Source: a phage. From it: 64,000 bases of DNA. A model generated the notes under the pieces. That model had not been told where the DNA came from and ran no database searches. It saw only the letters and a program-made list of their open reading frames with translations. The position numbers were made by a program, and so were the translations under genes. The DNA is taken from the sequence record PX104380.1. One strand, given 5' to 3'. Below are positions 36,008 to 43,556 of the stretch, piece by piece (within the stretch, counting starts at the first letter, position 1; each line of letters opens with the position of its first letter).

Positions 36008-36333
36008 TTAAACCATCCTTTAATACGCTGCCACAAAGTTTTCTGCTGAGCTTTGTTGACACCAATTGAACGAATAACTGGTTGAGATTCCTGGAATTCT
36101 TTATAATCGGCAAGGTAAATTTCGTAAGCTGCATCCGTAAATGAACTTATCGCTGCCATAAAATTATTGCGAATACCTACTGGAGCATCTTTACTTTCAC
36201 GAATAATCATGTATTTACCAGTCTTAATCTTTACAATAGTTCCAAGATAAGCTCCATGATACCAGATGTCCCAACCCTCTTGAGTAGGTTCTGCACAACG
36301 ACGAAGTTCATTAACAATTTCTAACTTGTTCAT
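36004..36333 (-). CDS. hypothetical protein, 109 aa
   Basis: ORF track. Confidence 0.5.
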
Positions 36334-36343
36334 TATTTATTCC

Positions 36344-36979
36344 TCACAGTTCAGATGCTACAGTGATTACTGCTTCAATGTTTTCTGCCGAGCGTTTAAT
36401 GTCAAGATAAACATTACCGTTTTTAGCGATTTTACAAGACATTCCGATATCAGTAAATTTCTGAATATGATGTTCCATCATTTTGTATCCAAAAATTCGC
36501 ATATTTCCATTGTTGTTAATTTCAAAATTACGAATTCCGTGAGTGCGTTTTTCTAAAATAGCGAGATAGTTACTGCGATAAGTTTCAACCTTTTTAAGAA
36601 CAAATCCATTTTCATCTAAAAGTTTTAACATGAGGTCTTTATCTTCTTCCATATCAGAAGTAATCTCACGAGCTTTACGAGTTGCTCGTTTTTTCAGTAG
36701 TTCCGGAGCATTTTCCTGTGCGTATAAAGTTGCTGCATTTGAAATAATATCCTGGGCTTCACCTGTAATGATTAATCCATCACCAGATTTCTCCACCAGG
36801 CCTTTTTTAATCAATACCCCAATATTACTATTAACTACTGCGTTACCTAAATCTGGATGCACCCCACGAACTTCTGCGGCTGTAATGAAATCTTTCTTAG
36901 CAATGGTAATTAAAATCGCAGCAGTTTTTTCATTCAGAACATCGTTAGAAGCTTTGATGATGTAAGTTACTTTAGACAT
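36344..36979 (-). CDS. motA: MotA middle-transcription activator, 211 aa
   Basis: 211 aa, MSKVTYIIKASNDVLNEKTAAILITIAKKDF...; early-type promoter upstream. Confidence 0.9.
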   Translation of the reverse strand: MSKVTYIIKASNDVLNEKTAAILITIAKKDFITAAEVRGVHPDLGNAVVNSNIGVLIKKGLVEKSGDGLIITGEAQDIISNAATLYAQENAPELLKKRATRKAREITSDMEEDKDLMLKLLDENGFVLKKVETYRSNYLAILEKRTHGIRNFEINNNGNMRIFGYKMMEHHIQKFTDIGMSCKIAKNGNVYLDIKRSAENIEAVITVASEL

Positions 36980-37017
36980 TTTCTAATCTCCGTAATTCTG
37001 TATCAGTAGTTGATAGT

Positions 37018-37050
37018 TGTATAGTACCACAGTATGCTTTGGTTGTAAAC
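37018..37050 (-). promoter_or_regulatory. early-type promoter upstream of motA
   Basis: GTTTAC-N18-TACTAT with A/T-rich upstream tract and conserved leader. Confidence 0.6.
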
Positions 37051-37070
37051 CGTTTTATGAAAAAAATTTT

Positions 37071-37100
37071 AAAATAAAAAGGGAGAGCCTCGGCTCTCCC
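37071..37100 (-). terminator. rho-independent terminator upstream of motA promoter
   Basis: Minus sense GGGAGAGCCGAGGCUCUCCC followed by UUUUUAUUUU. Confidence 0.65.
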
Positions 37101-37105
37101 TAAAA

Positions 37106-37255
37106 TTACTGCATGACTGTGATAACTGTCATGATAACACGTTGAATTCCGAACGCAAGAAGACCTCCTGCTACGGCTGGAACAACACCTAAACCCGCCA
37201 GTAAAATGCTACCGGATACTAATGCAGCGCTTGTAATACCAATGAATGGACTCAT
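37106..37255 (-). CDS. small hydrophobic membrane protein, 49 aa
   Basis: MSPFIGITSAALVSGSILLAGLGVVPAVAGGLLAFGIQRVIMTVITVMQ; ATG overlaps gp52 stop (ATGA); below track cutoff. Confidence 0.4.
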   Translation of the reverse strand: MSPFIGITSAALVSGSILLAGLGVVPAVAGGLLAFGIQRVIMTVITVMQ

Positions 37256-38580
37256 TTGATTTCCTCTAAATCTTTAGTGTATTCTGTAACTACATCAGTA
37301 GTTTTCCAATATTCGTTTTCTTCTTTTTTAGCTTTAGCTTCTTCAGCAAGTTTCTTTGCTTCGTCGGAAGTCATATGAAAAATATTCATTCCGACTAGTT
37401 TATCGACATAAGAAGAATACATCTCAATTTTAGAAAGTTCTTCGGTCAGTTCTTTGCGAGTTTTACCCTGTACAACAATTTCACCTGAAATTACTTTCTT
37501 AATGAAATGCGCCTTGGCAAAGGCTAAACGAAAAGCTGACTCAGTTTCTTTGATTTTGTTATCAATTCGTTTTTGGACATAAGTTTTACGAACTTCAACG
37601 AAGTCTTTGATTAAATCAACTACGTTATCGTAAACTTGTAGCTTTCCTTTCTCATTAATAACGGTAATATTTTGGGAACGACGCTCAATCAACCCAAAGT
37701 CTTTCATAATTTTTGCATGGCGTTCTTCTTCGTTATCGCTCAAAGAATATTCTTTGCGGAATTTAACTTTGAAGCCAAAACCATGCTCACCACAAGCATC
37801 ATCCCATGTAATGAAGCCTTTATCTTCAAGTGGATCTAAAATTTTGCTCACATAAGTTTCACGATCATACTTATACGGAATCTCAGTGATATGCATTTGC
37901 GTTCGTGAAGTAAACTTATATGTTCCACGAATTTCATATTGACCGTCAATCTCAACGACTTCACCACGAAATTCTGGGAATTCTACCTTCGGTTTAGTTA
38001 CTTTCTTTCCTTGAAGAGCTTGCAGTACAGCTTTCTTGACAGAAGAAACACTATGAGGAAGAATGTAAGTTGCATAACCAGTTGCAATACCGGAAACACC
38101 ATTAAGAAGAACAGTAGGAATAATAGGCAAATAGAAAGCAGGCGGAATGTGTTCTTTATCTTGATGTACCGGAGCATATTCAGTATCTTTATATACGTTA
38201 TAGAAATTTTTACTTACACGAGCAAAAATATAACGACTTGCTGCTGCTTTTTGAACGGTACGAGAACCAAAGTTTCCTTGACCATCTAACAAAGGAAAGT
38301 TATTATTCCAAGTGTTAGCCATCAAAGCCCCCGCATCTTGTGCAGAGTTTTCACCATGATGATATCCAAGGTCCGCTACACCACCTGCAATAGAAGCGAG
38401 TTTGTGAAACTTATCTTTATTTCCTCGTGCCAAATCAAGAGCTCGAGCAATAACAAATCGTTGAACTGGCTTAAATCCGTCAATCATATTTGGAATGGCA
38501 CGATTTTCAACCGTGTACATAGCATAAGCCAATGCTTCATTATCAATGATACTTTTTAAATCGCGATTATTCAGTTGCAT
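37252..38580 (-). CDS. 52: DNA topoisomerase II medium subunit gp52 (GyrA-like), 442 aa
   Basis: 442 aa; GyrA-type catalytic region (ASRYIFARV). Confidence 0.9.
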   Translation of the reverse strand: MQLNNRDLKSIIDNEALAYAMYTVENRAIPNMIDGFKPVQRFVIARALDLARGNKDKFHKLASIAGGVADLGYHHGENSAQDAGALMANTWNNNFPLLDGQGNFGSRTVQKAAASRYIFARVSKNFYNVYKDTEYAPVHQDKEHIPPAFYLPIIPTVLLNGVSGIATGYATYILPHSVSSVKKAVLQALQGKKVTKPKVEFPEFRGEVVEIDGQYEIRGTYKFTSRTQMHITEIPYKYDRETYVSKILDPLEDKGFITWDDACGEHGFGFKVKFRKEYSLSDNEEERHAKIMKDFGLIERRSQNITVINEKGKLQVYDNVVDLIKDFVEVRKTYVQKRIDNKIKETESAFRLAFAKAHFIKKVISGEIVVQGKTRKELTEELSKIEMYSSYVDKLVGMNIFHMTSDEAKKLAEEAKAKKEENEYWKTTDVVTEYTKDLEEIK

Positions 38581-38584
38581 AAAT

Positions 38585-38725
38585 TTACCATACTAGTGAA
38601 TGTAGTGCCATAATAACATCAGAAATGAAAAGCACGACTTGAATTAATCCGAACATTACTCCATAATATAGTGCTACTAATAAAGTAGCAAGGGCTAATG
38701 AATAGCCCAAGATTTTCTTAATCAT
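38585..38725 (-). CDS. small hydrophobic protein, 46 aa
   Basis: MIKKILGYSLALATLLVALYYGVMFGLIQVVLFISDVIMALHSLVW; below track cutoff. Confidence 0.35.
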   Translation of the reverse strand: MIKKILGYSLALATLLVALYYGVMFGLIQVVLFISDVIMALHSLVW

Positions 38726-38876
38726 TAGTAGATAACAACACAAATGTTAAATATGCACACATACCCTGAGCTAAAGCTTGCGAAAACACACTGCTGGCAT
38801 CAATACAGATAGTTAAAACACATGCTACTATCCAACAAATAAATGAAATAACTCCTAATAATTTTGCAATATTCAT
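38718..38876 (-). CDS. small hydrophobic Cys-rich membrane protein, 52 aa
   Basis: MNIAKLLGVISFICWIVACVLTICIDASS...; below track cutoff. Confidence 0.35.
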   Translation of the reverse strand: MNIAKLLGVISFICWIVACVLTICIDASSVFSQALAQGMCAYLTFVLLSTND

Positions 38877-38883
38877 ATTTTCC

Positions 38884-38997
38884 TCACATAAATCCAAAGT
38901 AAACGTTTAATACATCAATCATTAAAACGATTGGGAATATACTCAAAACTACTAGTATTATAACTACATTCCATATAGCTTTAACAATCTTTTTCAT
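38884..38997 (-). CDS. small membrane protein, 37 aa
   Basis: ATG at 38997 after GGAGGAACAG; MKKIVKAIWNVVIILVVLSIFPIVLMIDVLNVYFGFM; track extension covers promoter. Confidence 0.4.
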   Translation of the reverse strand: MKKIVKAIWNVVIILVVLSIFPIVLMIDVLNVYFGFM

Positions 38998-39023
38998 TTT
39001 CTGTTCCTCCGTAGTTGATAGGG

Positions 39024-39055
39024 TAATAGTACCACGGAAGAACAGTCTTGTAAAC
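39024..39055 (-). promoter_or_regulatory. early-type promoter
   Basis: GTTTAC...GGTACTATTACCC; leader plus RBS nearly identical to cassette at 39530. Confidence 0.55.
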
Positions 39056-39062
39056 AGCTTTT

Positions 39063-39161
39063 TTAAAAATATTCGTAATAAATGTGAATACCAACTACTA
39101 CCGCTGAAACCTGTGCAACCCACCACGCACAAGCAATAAGTACAGAATTCAAAATTTTCAT
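39063..39161 (-). CDS. small hydrophobic peptide, 32 aa
   Basis: MKILNSVLIACAWWVAQVSAVVVGIHIYYEYF; overlapping ATG/TGA with next mini-ORF. Confidence 0.3.
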   Translation of the reverse strand: MKILNSVLIACAWWVAQVSAVVVGIHIYYEYF

Positions 39162-39244
39162 AATAACCTCATTACAAAAGTAAATGTTAAACAAATTACT
39201 GGAATACTAATTAACCAAACAAAACACCACCATAGTGAACTCAT
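39158..39244 (-). CDS. small hydrophobic peptide, 28 aa
   Basis: MSSLWWCFVWLISIPVICLTFTFVMRLL; start overlaps stop of upstream ORF. Confidence 0.3.
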   Translation of the reverse strand: MSSLWWCFVWLISIPVICLTFTFVMRLL

Positions 39245-39504
39245 AGCTCAATCTCAGCGATTTTCATTTCATTACTATTAATAGCCGCTTTAAGACTATC
39301 TGAAAGAATTACATTCCAATGGTCATTCATATGACCATTAACTAAGCGTGTAATTTCTTCGGGAGTTGAAAAATAAGGCTGATCAGACTCCCAATGCGAT
39401 AGTCCCAAGCGAGTATAAATCATACCTTCATCATCGCTAGAATATTCAACTGACACAAACTCATCAGTTATTTTATGTTTAGCGTAATAAAATTTAAATT
39501 TCAT
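39241..39504 (-). CDS. hypothetical protein, 87 aa
   Basis: ORF track; early-type promoter upstream. Confidence 0.5.
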   Translation of the reverse strand: MKFKFYYAKHKITDEFVSVEYSSDDEGMIYTRLGLSHWESDQPYFSTPEEITRLVNGHMNDHWNVILSDSLKAAINSNEMKIAEIEL

Positions 39505-39529
39505 TTTCTGTTCCTCCGTAGTTGATAGT

Positions 39530-39562
39530 TATATAGTACCACGGTCCTTGTGGTGTGTAAAC
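39530..39562 (-). promoter_or_regulatory. early-type promoter
   Basis: GTTTAC...GGTACTATATAAC; near-identical to cassette at 39024. Confidence 0.55.
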
Positions 39563-39580
39563 CATTTTGTGAAAAATTTT

Positions 39581-40138
39581 TTAAATGGAAAGATACCATC
39601 CGTTGTAGTTGCTTTTTCGCACTACCTTACGAAGGTCTTCTCTGTCACCGATGAACTTCGGAGTGTACTGGATGACACCTGGATGAATTTCTTTAGTGTT
39701 GAATATAATTATACAGTCCGCGACTTGATGATTTAGAATGGGCCCTAGATTTATTCCAGAACCATATGGATACTCTCCGCTGCATCCCGTTGTTACCGAA
39801 ATCCAACGCGAGTCAGTTTGATGTGTCTTAACTTCTACACGGAGCCCACAGTATTTTGGATGTGCTAAAACATCCCATGCATACGTGTACGGATCATCGG
39901 CATCTTCTTGACCTTTGTTAACATATCCACTCAACCAATCTGCTACCACATACTCGGCATACACAGCAATACGGCATCTTTCGATAACTTCTGCCTTATC
40001 CTGATTTGGGTTTTGTTTTAAAGAGTATCTTGCAGTATCAGCAATTTTGGCCTTCATTTCACTAGTCAAGTCACTGTTAGATAGTGTAAATGACGGAATC
40101 TGAAATAGTCTCTGCAAACCCGGATTCGTTTTCTGCAT
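39581..40138 (-). CDS. denB: endonuclease IV-like protein, 185 aa
   Basis: 185 aa, position upstream of rIIB; assignment by size and synteny. Confidence 0.7.
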   Translation of the reverse strand: MQKTNPGLQRLFQIPSFTLSNSDLTSEMKAKIADTARYSLKQNPNQDKAEVIERCRIAVYAEYVVADWLSGYVNKGQEDADDPYTYAWDVLAHPKYCGLRVEVKTHQTDSRWISVTTGCSGEYPYGSGINLGPILNHQVADCIIIFNTKEIHPGVIQYTPKFIGDREDLRKVVRKSNYNGWYLSI

Positions 40139-40175
40139 TTAAACTTTCCTTTATGTCGGAATCATAATTTCTCTT

Positions 40176-40208
40176 AAAACAAAAGGGCCGAAGCCCTTAT
40201 TTTATTTG
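40176..40208. terminator. bidirectional terminator-like hairpin between denB and upstream ORF
   Basis: GGGCCGAAGCCC hairpin (UUCG loop on minus sense) flanked by A-run on one side and T-run on the other. Confidence 0.45.
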
Positions 40209-40396
40209 AATTGTGCAATTCTTTTTTCTAAACAATCTGCGTAAGATTTCATTGAGATGAACTGTGAAAGCAGTAATTCTTGCTCAACTGCATTAACTGT
40301 TAGAAACTTTGCGCTTTCTAAAAATTTACTCAGTGCATTAATTTTGAGCATTAATTGATCGTATTCTTCTTTTACTCGTGCTTGATAACCTAACAT
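40202..40396 (-). CDS. hypothetical protein, 64 aa
   Basis: ORF track; flanked by tetraloop hairpins. Confidence 0.45.
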   Translation of the reverse strand: MLGYQARVKEEYDQLMLKINALSKFLESAKFLTVNAVEQELLLSQFISMKSYADCLEKRIAQFK

Positions 40397-40428
40397 AATT
40401 TTCCTTAATGTGATAAGGGACGAAGCCC

Positions 40429-41367
40429 TTATTTAAATTGTTCTGTAACGTCTTCAACTACTTCGTATTGGCAGGTACGCATTTTAGCATCGTTGTAATC
40501 AATCGGAATTGATACTACATCACGCGGATGTACTTTAACTTTTACAACTCGGCTAGTTGAACTGCCAAAGTGACGAATATAAGATTTAGAACACACATGC
40601 AGACCGCGAGAACAAGTTTGTGTATCATCGTCATTCACACGAGTACGTGGCATTTTAACTACTTTACCAGGGCTGTTATCAAAAGTATTTGAATGACAGT
40701 CAAAGTAATTGCTGCGAACTACTTTCCAAGCATAGAAGTAACCGTCTTCTGTAATTTCAATATCGTTTGCTACCAAGAAATCAAAGAGTCGAGATACCGC
40801 TTTTTGGCTTGGGTTTTCCAGCAGATTTTCCAAGAACGGAAAATAGAATTCAAAGTTTTCGCCTTTTTCCATCGAGTCAAGAATACGATCAACCAAACCA
40901 GACCGTAATTCGATATTTTGATAGAACAAGCTTCCACCTTCAATTCGAACATCGCCGGAAATATATTTTTCAACAGCGCGGCGAACATTAATTTTTTGCG
41001 CAGCTTCTTCCAGCTTATCTGCTACAAGCAGATTAAGAATTTCCTGGAAGTTTGAATGAGTATTAGGAGTTGCGTTATAAGTTACACCGTCAACAGTAAT
41101 TGAAATGAATTTTTTAGATGCATTCCAAATAATGTCAGATTTAGCAACTGGAGCAATAGCTACATCACTCTTAACTTCAACTGTAATGTCACCGCTAATA
41201 GTAACTTTGGAGCGTTTAGCTTCTTCAGCATTTTTCAAAACACGACGGATTGTGTCAACCGATACACCTTGCCAATCAGCCAATTCCTGTTGGGTGTAAT
41301 TACCACTTGAATACAGCTTAACAATTTCAGCTTGTTCGTTTTTGGTCAGGCATTTAATATTGTACAT
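40429..41367 (-). CDS. rIIB: rIIB, 312 aa
   Basis: 312 aa, immediately downstream of rIIA; N-terminal HTH-like region (YTQQELADWQGVSVDTIRR). Confidence 0.9.
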   Translation of the reverse strand: MYNIKCLTKNEQAEIVKLYSSGNYTQQELADWQGVSVDTIRRVLKNAEEAKRSKVTISGDITVEVKSDVAIAPVAKSDIIWNASKKFISITVDGVTYNATPNTHSNFQEILNLLVADKLEEAAQKINVRRAVEKYISGDVRIEGGSLFYQNIELRSGLVDRILDSMEKGENFEFYFPFLENLLENPSQKAVSRLFDFLVANDIEITEDGYFYAWKVVRSNYFDCHSNTFDNSPGKVVKMPRTRVNDDDTQTCSRGLHVCSKSYIRHFGSSTSRVVKVKVHPRDVVSIPIDYNDAKMRTCQYEVVEDVTEQFK

Positions 41368-41378
41368 AATTTTCCTTA

Positions 41379-43556
41379 TTAGGCCGCAAGGGCCTTCATA
41401 GTTTTAGCGATTTGAGAAACTTCATCATCACTTAAAGAGTTGCGATATCCGATGAAGTCGGAAACAATACGGAATTTCTTGGTAAACTCAGCAACCATTT
41501 TATCACTGTTTTTTGAAGCATTATTTGATAATACATCAAAAAGATTAGTTACTGTCCAGATGTCATGACCGATGGTATCTTTTCCACCATTAAAATACAC
41601 ACCCTGCAATGAACTAACCATATTAGCGAGTCGTGTATATTCTTCAGAAACTTCATCTGTACTGAAGTACTTCATCATAAAATCTAGTTCAGGATGCTTG
41701 ATAATTTTATCAATATATCGTTGAGCTGAACTTGAATAACCTACATACTTATCATAATCTACATCATCAAAAGCATCTACATATAAATCACGTAAAGCTT
41801 CAAAAATACATTGGCACTGACCAAGCTCTTTTACCTTTTTCTGCAAAAGCGGACGAATAACATAAAATTCATTAATGCCAATAAGATTAGCCATACGAAT
41901 CAAAATATTCATAGATGGATGACAAAGCGATGTAGTACCATCCATAGAGAAAATATCAGAACGATGCATATACGCTACATACCCAGTAATTTCATCTGCT
42001 TCTGATGTGAGCGTAAATAATTCCTCTTTTTCCCAGCGCCCGTCTTTAATTTCAAACTTAAATGCTGTAGCAGCTTTAGGACGAGGAGCTTTACTTTTAA
42101 CTACCTTTGGAATATAGCTTTTAACTAAAGCTTCAATTTCTGACAAATAATGAATGTTAACTTCATCACTTTCAAACATCGCCATAATATCAGGAAGCAA
42201 ATCAATCTGCGATTCTACTTCTGGATTAATAAACAGAAGGCGTTCGTTGTGATGAATATTTAAGGTGTTATTAAATTCACTATCATCTAACGCATGTGCT
42301 AATCCACGGACAATATTAACACGATTTTTAATATTATCAATAACGATATTAATTTTTGTTGCATTAATACCAAACAGACGATAACTTGATGCAACGGCTG
42401 AAGTTTCATGACTTTGCTTAATGCGTTTCAGTCGAGGGTCAAGATTTACTTCATACACAACTCCTGCATTGCATAACTTACTATCAGGTTCAAACATACT
42501 CTGCATCTTTTTATATGACAGATTTTTAGTCGTGAATTTGACTGAATTACTAATCATATAATCTCGAGCAGAATACCCCATCTTCATCAATTCACGATAT
42601 GTGTGACGAGGAGATGTAGATTCTTTAAATCGTTTTACATCTTCATTAAATGCTTTCTCACTGAGTTCTTTAACTCGTTCAATAATATTTTTACGAGTAC
42701 GATCATCCAGTGAAAGAGCCTCACGAGATGGAGCAATATCAAGTGAACCCATTGGAAACTTAATGTAATTCACTTCATTGCGAATGCTTAGCCAGTTACG
42801 GTCTCTAATAACACCGTCGATAGGATAAACAATACCGCCATAGATAGCATATAATCCGCCGCGATCTGGCCAGTATCTTTCTGGATTTACACCGTAATAA
42901 TCATCAAAATCCGGAAAATAATCAATTTCGCGGTCAAGACCGTTAATGATAGCCAAATCTTTGAACGGTCGCATGATATAAGAAACTTCATAAGCAAAGT
43001 TTCTAAAGTCTTTTTCTTCAACTGGAACTACGATTTCAATACCAGTTTTATCATCTGGATCCATTTCTTTTACGAATGTAGGTTTAATCTGTGGACCATC
43101 ACCATCCATGTAAGCTACATAACCACGAATTTCACCTTTATGATACGAAGTAATACTAAACGTATCAGTATAACTAAACGGAGATTTAGAACCTAAACCA
43201 AATCCACCAATGAAATCATTAGATTCAGCTTTAGATGAACTGAAATATGAATTATACAGACCAGGAGAATTATCATCACCCTGAATATCAAAATCACTCA
43301 TACCCGGACCAAAATCTCGACAAACAAATCGTGGATCTAAACGTCCAGGAACTTGAATGATAAATTTTTCAGGATTTCCATTGAGAGAATGGGCATCAAT
43401 CATGTTGGTAATCAATTCACGGACTACTGCGCGAATCTTGTTTGTATACAAATCAGACGACAGAATTTTAAATACTTTAGGAGATGCTGTGATGCTAAAT
43501 GCTTTTGATTTAGAACCATTGCCAAGAATTGTTTCTTTTTCAGTGGTGATAATCAT
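41379..43556 (-). CDS. rIIA: rIIA, 725 aa
   Basis: 725 aa; N-terminal GHKL-ATPase-like motifs ([10 protein letters not shown]..., GFGLGSKS). Confidence 0.9.

Follow-up and report, generated by a model that had tools for sequence, protein, structure and literature searches.

The six small reading frames and their T4 counterparts

The 64,000-nucleotide stretch of sequence record PX104380.1 analysed here (the window) belongs to a T4-like phage of the genus Tequatrovirus, and its plus strand corresponds to the plus strand of T4. An initial annotation, made from the letters of the sequence, had drawn attention to six open reading frames (ORFs) of 28-52 codons around gene 52 (37252-38580, minus strand; topoisomerase II medium subunit, gp52, 442 amino acids, aa), and all six were found on the minus strand within 37106-39244. 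By sequence match they are T4 motA.1, 52.1, ac, ndd.4, ndd.5 and ndd.6, which are already known genes; the T4 reference record NC_000866 annotates all six in matching order and strand (T4p263, T4p265, T4p266 and T4p273-T4p275), with overlaps and promoters as in the window phage. It is highly probable that the six are genuine and conserved, that they code for membrane-type peptides and that they are the same set as in T4. The observation in the initial annotation was correct and its interpretation essentially right, including the statement that T-even phages carry small membrane-peptide genes in the gene 52 region, since six T4 orthologues lie there and ac, one of its two examples, is among them. 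Its other example, stp, was misplaced, as Stp is a hydrophilic peptide and is missing from the window.

Five of the frames lie upstream of gene 52. The first, ndd.6 (39158-39244, 28 aa), starts in an ATGA overlap with the stop of an 87-aa ORF, and ndd.5 (39063-39161, 32 aa) overlaps the ndd.6 stop in the same way. They are followed by ndd.4 (38884-38997, 37 aa, read from the ATG after GGAGGA), ac (38718-38876, 52 aa) and 52.1 (38585-38725, 46 aa), the last of which begins 8 nucleotides (nt) inside the end of ac and has its stop 4 nt ahead of the gene 52 ATG. On the other side of gene 52, the Gly-rich, hydrophobic motA.1 (37106-37255, 49 aa) starts with an ATG that overlaps the gene 52 stop, again as ATGA. 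The stop-to-start overlaps pointed out initially were thus present at four starts, three of them ATGA and one of 8 nt; as the starts of several frames are chained to upstream stops, these mini-ORFs are probably translated by coupling. Shine-Dalgarno sequences precede motA.1 (GAGGA, 7 nt upstream of the ATG), ac (GAGGA, 5 nt), ndd.4 (GGAGGA, 7 nt) and ndd.5 (GAGG, 5 nt), so the plausible ribosome-binding sites ascribed to all six frames were borne out for these four but not for ndd.6, which has a weak GAG only, or for 52.1, at whose start inspection revealed no Shine-Dalgarno sequence. A mechanical ORF list lengthened four of the six frames to upstream TTG codons (52, 59, 82 and 43 aa), but it is the ATG starts, not the TTGs, that are conserved among relatives.

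The motA.1, ndd.5 and ndd.6 proteins are 100% identical to their T4 counterparts, and 52.1 and ndd.4 differ from theirs by one and two substitutions, respectively. T4 ndd.4 is annotated with a start that gives 42 aa, and this codon is ACG in the window phage. Ac of the window contains all 51 residues of T4 Ac plus one inserted Thr before the C-terminal ND, and it keeps the central SSVFSQALAQG segment and Gly38. For all six proteins, full-length matches to PHROG families were obtained (E 2e-17 to 2e-31), namely phrog_3487 for motA.1 (residues 1-49 of 49, E 2e-31), phrog_3595 for 52.1, phrog_2501 for ac, phrog_3098 for ndd.4 (E 2e-21), phrog_5011 for ndd.5 (E 4e-26) and phrog_8851 for ndd.6 (E 2e-17). 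Furthermore, 52.1 matched Pfam DUF7396 (PF24129) over positions 1-46 of 46 with 81.9 bits against a gathering cut-off of 27, and tblastn with motA.1 retrieved 493 phage records, 492 of them full length. Searches of NCBIfam, PADLOC and PDB sequences with the mini-proteins gave nothing significant.

With entries for all six in the T4 reference record and in curated families, these genes carry little weight as a discovery. They do illustrate that a reading of the sequence by itself can recover genuine genes of fewer than 60 codons that many automatic annotations of T4-like phages miss or mislabel. In GenBank records of T4-like phages 52.1 and ndd.6 are frequently uncalled, and motA.1, although a 49-aa hydrophobic peptide, is commonly named 'transcriptional regulator', a name that it seems to have taken over from motA.

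Conservation and selection at the amino-acid level

The conservation of the six genes was determined in 41 gene 52 loci from IMG/VR, with gp52 47-100% identical, and in nine GenBank loci. Homologues of 52.1 (44-46 aa) were present in 36 loci, all immediately upstream of gene 52 and down to about 25% identity, those of ndd.4 (36-39 aa) in 30 and those of ndd.6 (28-29 aa) in 23. A profile search found ac homologues of 47-52 aa in 21 loci, including a second paralogue beside ac in phage pSs-1. Homologues of motA.1, all of exactly 49 aa, were found in 18 loci, four of them at 38-45% identity and still on the gene 52 stop, and ndd.5 homologues of 32 aa in 15 loci, all Tequatrovirus. ORF length was preserved for five of the six genes in homologues as low as 25-45% identity; the ac family profile reached 47-51-aa homologues at 26-35% identity. 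The initial annotation had named conservation of each frame in related phages as a point on which its reading could fail, and the frames proved to be conserved.

Within Tequatrovirus, the pooled variable columns fell on codon positions 1/2/3 in the numbers 15/7/38 (chi-square p = 2e-6), and for motA.1, and likewise for ndd.5, the variable sites were distributed 1/0/10. Nei-Gojobori ratios of non-synonymous to synonymous change (dN/dS) within the genus were about 0-0.3 for motA.1 and ndd.6, 0-0.5 for ac, 0.04-0.09 for ndd.5 and up to 0.45 for 52.1; ndd.4, with 0-1 synonymous and 1-3 non-synonymous differences, was uninformative at this distance. Across genera, the proportion of synonymous differences (pS) was 0.39 for 52.1 against a non-synonymous proportion (pN) of 0.04-0.06 in loci with gp52 81% identical, and for ndd.4 pS was 0.66-0.84 against a pN of 0.24-0.27.

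In the alignments, polar and aromatic positions were fixed amid freely changing hydrophobic ones. The invariant residues were W15, T22, V30, Q33 and Q37 in Ac, L32, F33, V37 and W46 in 52.1, K2, K6, I8, W9, F21 and D28 in ndd.4, and S3, W6, W10, I14 and P15 in ndd.6. Asp36 of 52.1 was considered as a conserved intramembrane acid and rejected, as the position is occupied by D, N, R or C. By codon-usage log-odds, five of the six mini-ORFs each outscored at least 92% of the spurious ORFs of comparable length. An Rfam scan of 36300-40500 gave only a sub-threshold match on a terminator hairpin, so no RNA family explains the conservation. T4 does not have the 87-aa ORF, but a relic of eight codons (MKIAEIEL-stop) is left there, with its stop overlapping the ATG of ndd.6, and the same relic occurs in RB6; its retention in both phages, ending on the ndd.6 start, supports translation of ndd.6. 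Judged from the aligned sequences, all six genes encode proteins, and purifying selection acts on their amino-acid sequences.

Some further variation was seen in the sampled loci. In Shigella phage pSs-1 (L049, 1821-1976) the second, diverged ac-like gene adjoins ac and encodes 51 aa with 35% identity to Ac, and phage Aplg8, too, has two genes that are annotated as 'acridine resistance'. In IMGVR_UViG_2974742932_000001 (L005, 169650 bp) a change of frame close to the C-terminal end has removed the stop of ndd.6, which extends to 83 aa and is thus a naturally occurring variant. T4-like phages with gp52 56-81% identical still carry one to four small hydrophobic ORFs immediately upstream of gene 52 (L008, L010, L014-L016, L021, L023, L025, L028 and L040). 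On the other side, in about half of the loci, a hydrophobic ORF of 22-77 aa begins on the gene 52 stop or a few nt from it, usually overlapping; these ORFs are often without detectable similarity to motA.1, the position being kept and the sequence not.

Hydrophobicity and predicted structure

Across all six peptides the 19-residue Kyte-Doolittle maximum was 2.17-3.05 and the grand average of hydropathy 1.25-1.86. Each of them carries a hydrophobic segment of membrane-spanning grade, and their description as hydrophobic or transmembrane-like therefore applied in six of six cases. As a control, the same score was computed for 132 spurious ORFs with ATG starts and 28-55 aa, all of which lie within long genes of the window but are read in other frames. 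In this genome of 35% GC, 19% of the control ORFs on the same strand and 7% on the opposite strand reached a Kyte-Doolittle value of 2.0, and 36% of those on the same strand exceeded the classical threshold of 1.6. Six hydrophobic peptides out of six is well above the control rate, and the evidence from conservation is independent of hydropathy.

AlphaFold2, run without an alignment, returned a single long helix for 52.1 (predicted local distance difference test, pLDDT, 94.5) and for motA.1 (pLDDT 90.9). The models support a helical character; a single span and a hairpin are indistinguishable from them.

Probable transcription units and neighbouring genes

On the minus strand the order after the 87-aa ORF is ndd.6, ndd.5, a promoter gap, ndd.4, ac, 52.1, gene 52, motA.1, a terminator and motA. 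Gene 52 and the 87-aa ORF are 664 nt apart, and 588 nt of this interval belong to the five upstream mini-ORFs; a promoter gap of 65 nt and spacers of 4-7 nt make up the rest. As in T4, ndd.6, ndd.5, the promoter and ndd.4 come in this order between denB and ac, and motA.1 was found in its T4 setting, with its start on the gene 52 stop and followed by the terminator and then the motA promoter. Two differences from T4 were observed. T4 carries the genes stp through ndd.3 between ndd.4 and ac, whereas in the window phage ac comes directly after ndd.4, and T4 has no 87-aa gene ahead of ndd.6. Megablast with 36900-39600 matched 912 phage records, 398 of them with at least 80% query coverage at 95-99% identity.

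A promoter scan placed minus-strand early promoters at 39533-39561, ahead of the 87-aa ORF, ndd.6 and ndd.5, and at 39026-39054 (TTTACA, 17 nt, TG-extended TACTAT), ahead of ndd.4, ac, 52.1, gene 52 and motA.1. Directly 3' of motA.1 lies an intrinsic terminator (37080-37101, minus strand) with a 9-bp stem, six GC pairs and a T-run, and after it comes the motA early promoter (37021-37049, minus strand). The region would thus be read as two early-promoter units, one comprising the 87-aa ORF, ndd.6 and ndd.5, and the other running from ndd.4 through ac, 52.1, gene 52 and motA.1 to the terminator. The promoters are part of a 71-nt cassette present in three copies (37003-37073, 39008-39078 and 39515-39585) with 68-79% identity, each copy containing TTTACA, a 17-nt spacer and the TG-extended TACTAT; in two of the three copies ATCAACTACGGAGGAACAGAAA-ATG follows. 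We take these promoters to be of the established T4 early type and presume that they function as such.

The arrangement resembles the PeSL cassettes, composed of an early promoter and a stem-loop, which have been described for hyperplastic regions of T4-like phages (PMC2839356, PMC4122927). The likeness lies in the three-copy early-promoter cassette, of which copy 37003-37073 is directly preceded by the motA.1 terminator stem-loop, and in the gene content of relatives, which differs exactly at the cassettes and at repeated ribosome-binding-site junctions. However, two of the three cassettes in the window have no strong stem-loop, and the deletion of stp to ndd.3 described below did not use a full PeSL but a 16-nt repeat that comprises stop, ribosome-binding site and start.

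Upstream of the mini-ORFs, the minus strand carries rIIA (41379-43556), rIIB (40429-41367), denB.1 (40202-40396), denB (39581-40138) and, between denB and ndd.6, the 87-aa ORF (39241-39504), which encodes a hydrophilic protein of phrog_2390 and is the first gene of the upstream early unit; motA (36344-36979, minus strand) lies at the other end. The 87-aa ORF, missing from T4, occupies a gene slot that is exchanged between relatives at the early-promoter cassette, and RB6 has an unrelated 68-aa gene in this slot, followed by the 8-codon relic as in T4. An additional ORF of 37 aa with a TTG start (38981-39094, minus strand) runs across the early promoter upstream of ndd.4 and appears spurious, and it is carried as a 114-nt coding sequence in the annotations of phages PEC04 and pSs-1.

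Absence of the stp-ndd.3 block

Relative to T4, the window phage has no stp, ndd, ndd.1, ndd.2, ndd.2a or ndd.3, and none of these genes was found anywhere in the 64-kb window. For Stp (26 aa), tblastn against the window gave a best match no better than E 0.3, and ndd.4 directly precedes ac. The junction at 38872-38887 (minus strand; compare T4 165498-166635) is the 16-nt sequence GTGAGGAAAATATGAA. T4 carries this 16-mer twice, at the stp-stop/ac-start and at the ndd.4-stop/ndd.3-start, which are the two ends of the missing block; the deletion therefore matches exactly the product that would be expected from recombination between the two stop/ribosome-binding-site/start repeats. Among 758 matching phage records, the layout without stp-ndd.3 was shared by one, Shigella phage ESH35. 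In several GenBank records ndd.1, ndd.2 and related genes are called 'naphthalene 1,2-dioxygenase'.

T4 Stp, an activator of the host PrrC anticodon nuclease, is like the six peptides very small and early, and in T4 it is encoded immediately upstream of ac. It differs from them in being hydrophilic and basic (Kyte-Doolittle maximum -0.54) and not membrane-like. The loss of stp should abolish the trigger of host PrrC.

Experimental record in T4 and the Ac phenotype

The transcripts of all six genes are classed as early in T4 (PMC9697503 Table S2). Evidence at the protein level exists for ac, as deletion of the gene or the G38R mutation renders T4 resistant to acriflavine (10.1101/2025.06.30.662393). 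Plasmid-expressed Ac sensitises E. coli to acriflavine, with a 3-log reduction, and to ampicillin; cells that are infected or express Ac accumulate acriflavine, and Ac alone is tolerated by E. coli when acriflavine is absent (10.1101/2025.06.30.662393). The Ac variant with the extra Thr is common, occurring for example in PP01, and is reported to be acriflavine-sensitive like T4 Ac (10.1101/2025.06.30.662393). Ac is therefore proven at the protein level by genetics in T4, and its phenotype is the sole defined one among the six. The initial annotation had considered it unknown which frames are expressed; the early transcripts and the genetics of Ac run against that statement, and it holds insofar as no protein has been seen by mass spectrometry.

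According to the proposal of the authors of the Ac study, Ac would enter the membrane and block efflux through AcrAB-TolC (10.1101/2025.06.30.662393; PMC13250531). In this respect Ac recalls AcrZ, the 49-aa accessory protein of AcrB in E. coli (PDB 4c48 chain C), which is a hydrophobic, helical inner-membrane peptide of similar size and acts on the same pump as the proposed target of Ac. The two differ in that AcrZ, a single helix, has a tuning effect on the pump; for Ac, two short helices are predicted, and its proposed action is a block. BLASTP of Ac against AcrZ, with the AcrZ query confirmed against PDB 4c48_C, gave no alignment at E <= 100; because the two sequences share no similarity, any resemblance would be functional only.

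The sa-delta-9 deletion, which removes 52.1, ac, stp, ndd, ndd.1-6 and denB, leaves T4 viable with a burst size of about half, and the stimulation of phosphatidylglycerol synthesis after infection is lost (PMC6071114). In a CRISPRi-ART screen gene 52 alone in the group was classed as 'Fit' (PMC11879866 supplement). Neither a search of the literature for ribosome profiling of small proteins in T4 nor one of main texts for the gene names found anything relevant, and the six genes do not appear in the main text of the HIDEN-SEQ transposon preprint.

Discussion

The above data describe six early-transcribed, non-essential genes for hydrophobic, helical peptides of 28-52 residues. We propose that, in the first minutes of infection, all six peptides would become inserted in the inner membrane of the host. 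There, in the way suggested for Ac, they may serve as small accessory peptides that bind to envelope machines of the host and change how these or its lipid metabolism work; the advantage so gained would be conditional and not visible on laboratory hosts. The five mini-proteins other than Ac are conserved under clear purifying selection yet have no fitness effect in the laboratory, which suggests that they act at the envelope of the host under particular conditions. By analogy with Ac, the five uncharacterised peptides may act as accessory modulators of host membrane machines, a suggestion that we put forward tentatively.

Several results weigh against the view that all six are functional genes for membrane peptides. 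In an AT-rich genome such as this one, many spurious ORFs contain a hydrophobic segment, which therefore counts for little in any single ORF, and the case rests on conservation. There, ndd.6 showed a weaker contrast across genera (pS about 0.6 against a pN of about 0.35) and an ambiguous codon-usage score, with 22% of controls as high. For ndd.5, no homologue was found outside Tequatrovirus in the loci sampled; tblastn of its 32 aa against the phage collection also gave no match, which is not evidence of absence, since a query of this size could probably not reach the E-value limit. Liquid chromatography-mass spectrometry of T4-infected cells did not detect any of the six proteins (Class_P = NA; PMC9697503 Table S2), a miss that is to be expected for tiny hydrophobic peptides with few tryptic sites. 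Each of the six was classed as 'Not Fit' on knock-down by CRISPRi-ART (PMC11879866 supplement), so no function was visible on the laboratory host. Finally, the AcrAB-TolC mechanism of Ac is a proposal and not a demonstration.

The peptides might instead be membrane-damaging or defence-related effectors, such as depolarising toxins lethal to the host, superinfection-exclusion factors, or inhibitors or triggers of abortive-infection systems that act on the membrane. Many small immediate-early genes of T4, once cloned, are lethal to the host (PMC6071114), and the cluster lies in a variable region, with a gene content that turns over quickly between relatives, beside rIIA/rIIB, which counter RexAB, and in T4 also beside stp, the PrrC trigger. 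Moreover, motA.1 is Gly-rich in the manner of pore-forming peptides. We regard this alternative as unlikely, as the peptides matched no PADLOC, NCBIfam or PDB entry and Ac was tolerated by E. coli without acriflavine.

It is also conceivable that some frames, chiefly 52.1 and ndd.6, are translated spacers, whose translation would serve to bring ribosomes to the following gene by coupling, the peptide as such being without function. Both frames have no good Shine-Dalgarno sequence and start within an upstream stop, the stop of 52.1 stands just ahead of the gene 52 ATG, the relic in T4 and RB6 exists only to terminate on the ndd.6 start, and knock-down of either gene had no effect on fitness (PMC11879866). 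However, a spacer would not account for the constraint on the amino acids, seen in 52.1 as a pN far below pS with its four invariant residues fixed down to 25% identity and in ndd.6 as five fixed positions, and knock-down at the 52.1 start did not reproduce the fitness defect of gene 52 (PMC11879866). The spacer role is accordingly quite improbable.

As to the site of action, 28-32-residue peptides consisting of one hydrophobic helix would point to the inner membrane. The T4 record itself labels motA.1 as 'periplasmic' and ndd.5 and ndd.6 as 'outer membrane', and these labels could be correct if the peptides were, for example, cleaved lipoproteins; lipobox-like sequences are indeed present in ndd.5 (LIAC, residues 8-11) and in ac (IVAC, residues 16-19). 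The labels look like the output of old predictors, and 28-32 residues are too few to form an outer-membrane barrel. Cys19 of Ac varies among homologues (F, C, G or A) and ndd.6 has no lipobox, so the lipoprotein reading was rejected for these two. In ndd.5 only 10 residues would serve as signal peptide and the remainder after cleavage would still be a hydrophobic helix, which makes a lipoprotein unlikely despite the LIAC. Taken as a whole, we consider it very unlikely that the labels are right.

The idea that the six are chance ORFs in AT-rich DNA, hydrophobic by accident and carried along by annotation habit, can draw on the 36% and 19% of same-strand spurious ORFs of like size above 1.6 and 2.0, on the proteomics that saw no peptide of the six (PMC9697503) and on the inconsistent calling of 52.1 and ndd.6 in GenBank, but it can safely be dismissed, given the peak of substitutions at the third codon position, a pS far above pN, constant length and specific invariant residues in highly diverged homologues, the codon usage of five of the six and a conservation that no Rfam family explains, and for ac it is already refuted by point-mutant genetics.

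Returning to genuine membrane peptides, two more specific roles were considered. Either at least one of motA.1, 52.1 and ndd.4-6 specifically modulates a host inner-membrane machine, or the tiny ORFs have a positional role linked to gene 52; we consider it unlikely that either of these holds. Such a modulator could be the factor for the stimulation of phosphatidylglycerol synthesis lost in sa-delta-9. For the positional alternative, the recurrence of tiny hydrophobic ORFs flanking gene 52 across Straboviridae could reflect a role linked to the topoisomerase, such as membrane tethering of the replication complex. The natural deletion makes the window phage useful as a genetic tool in this regard: as it lacks stp-ndd.3, the list of candidates for the phosphatidylglycerol factor would narrow to 52.1, ac, ndd.4-6 and denB.

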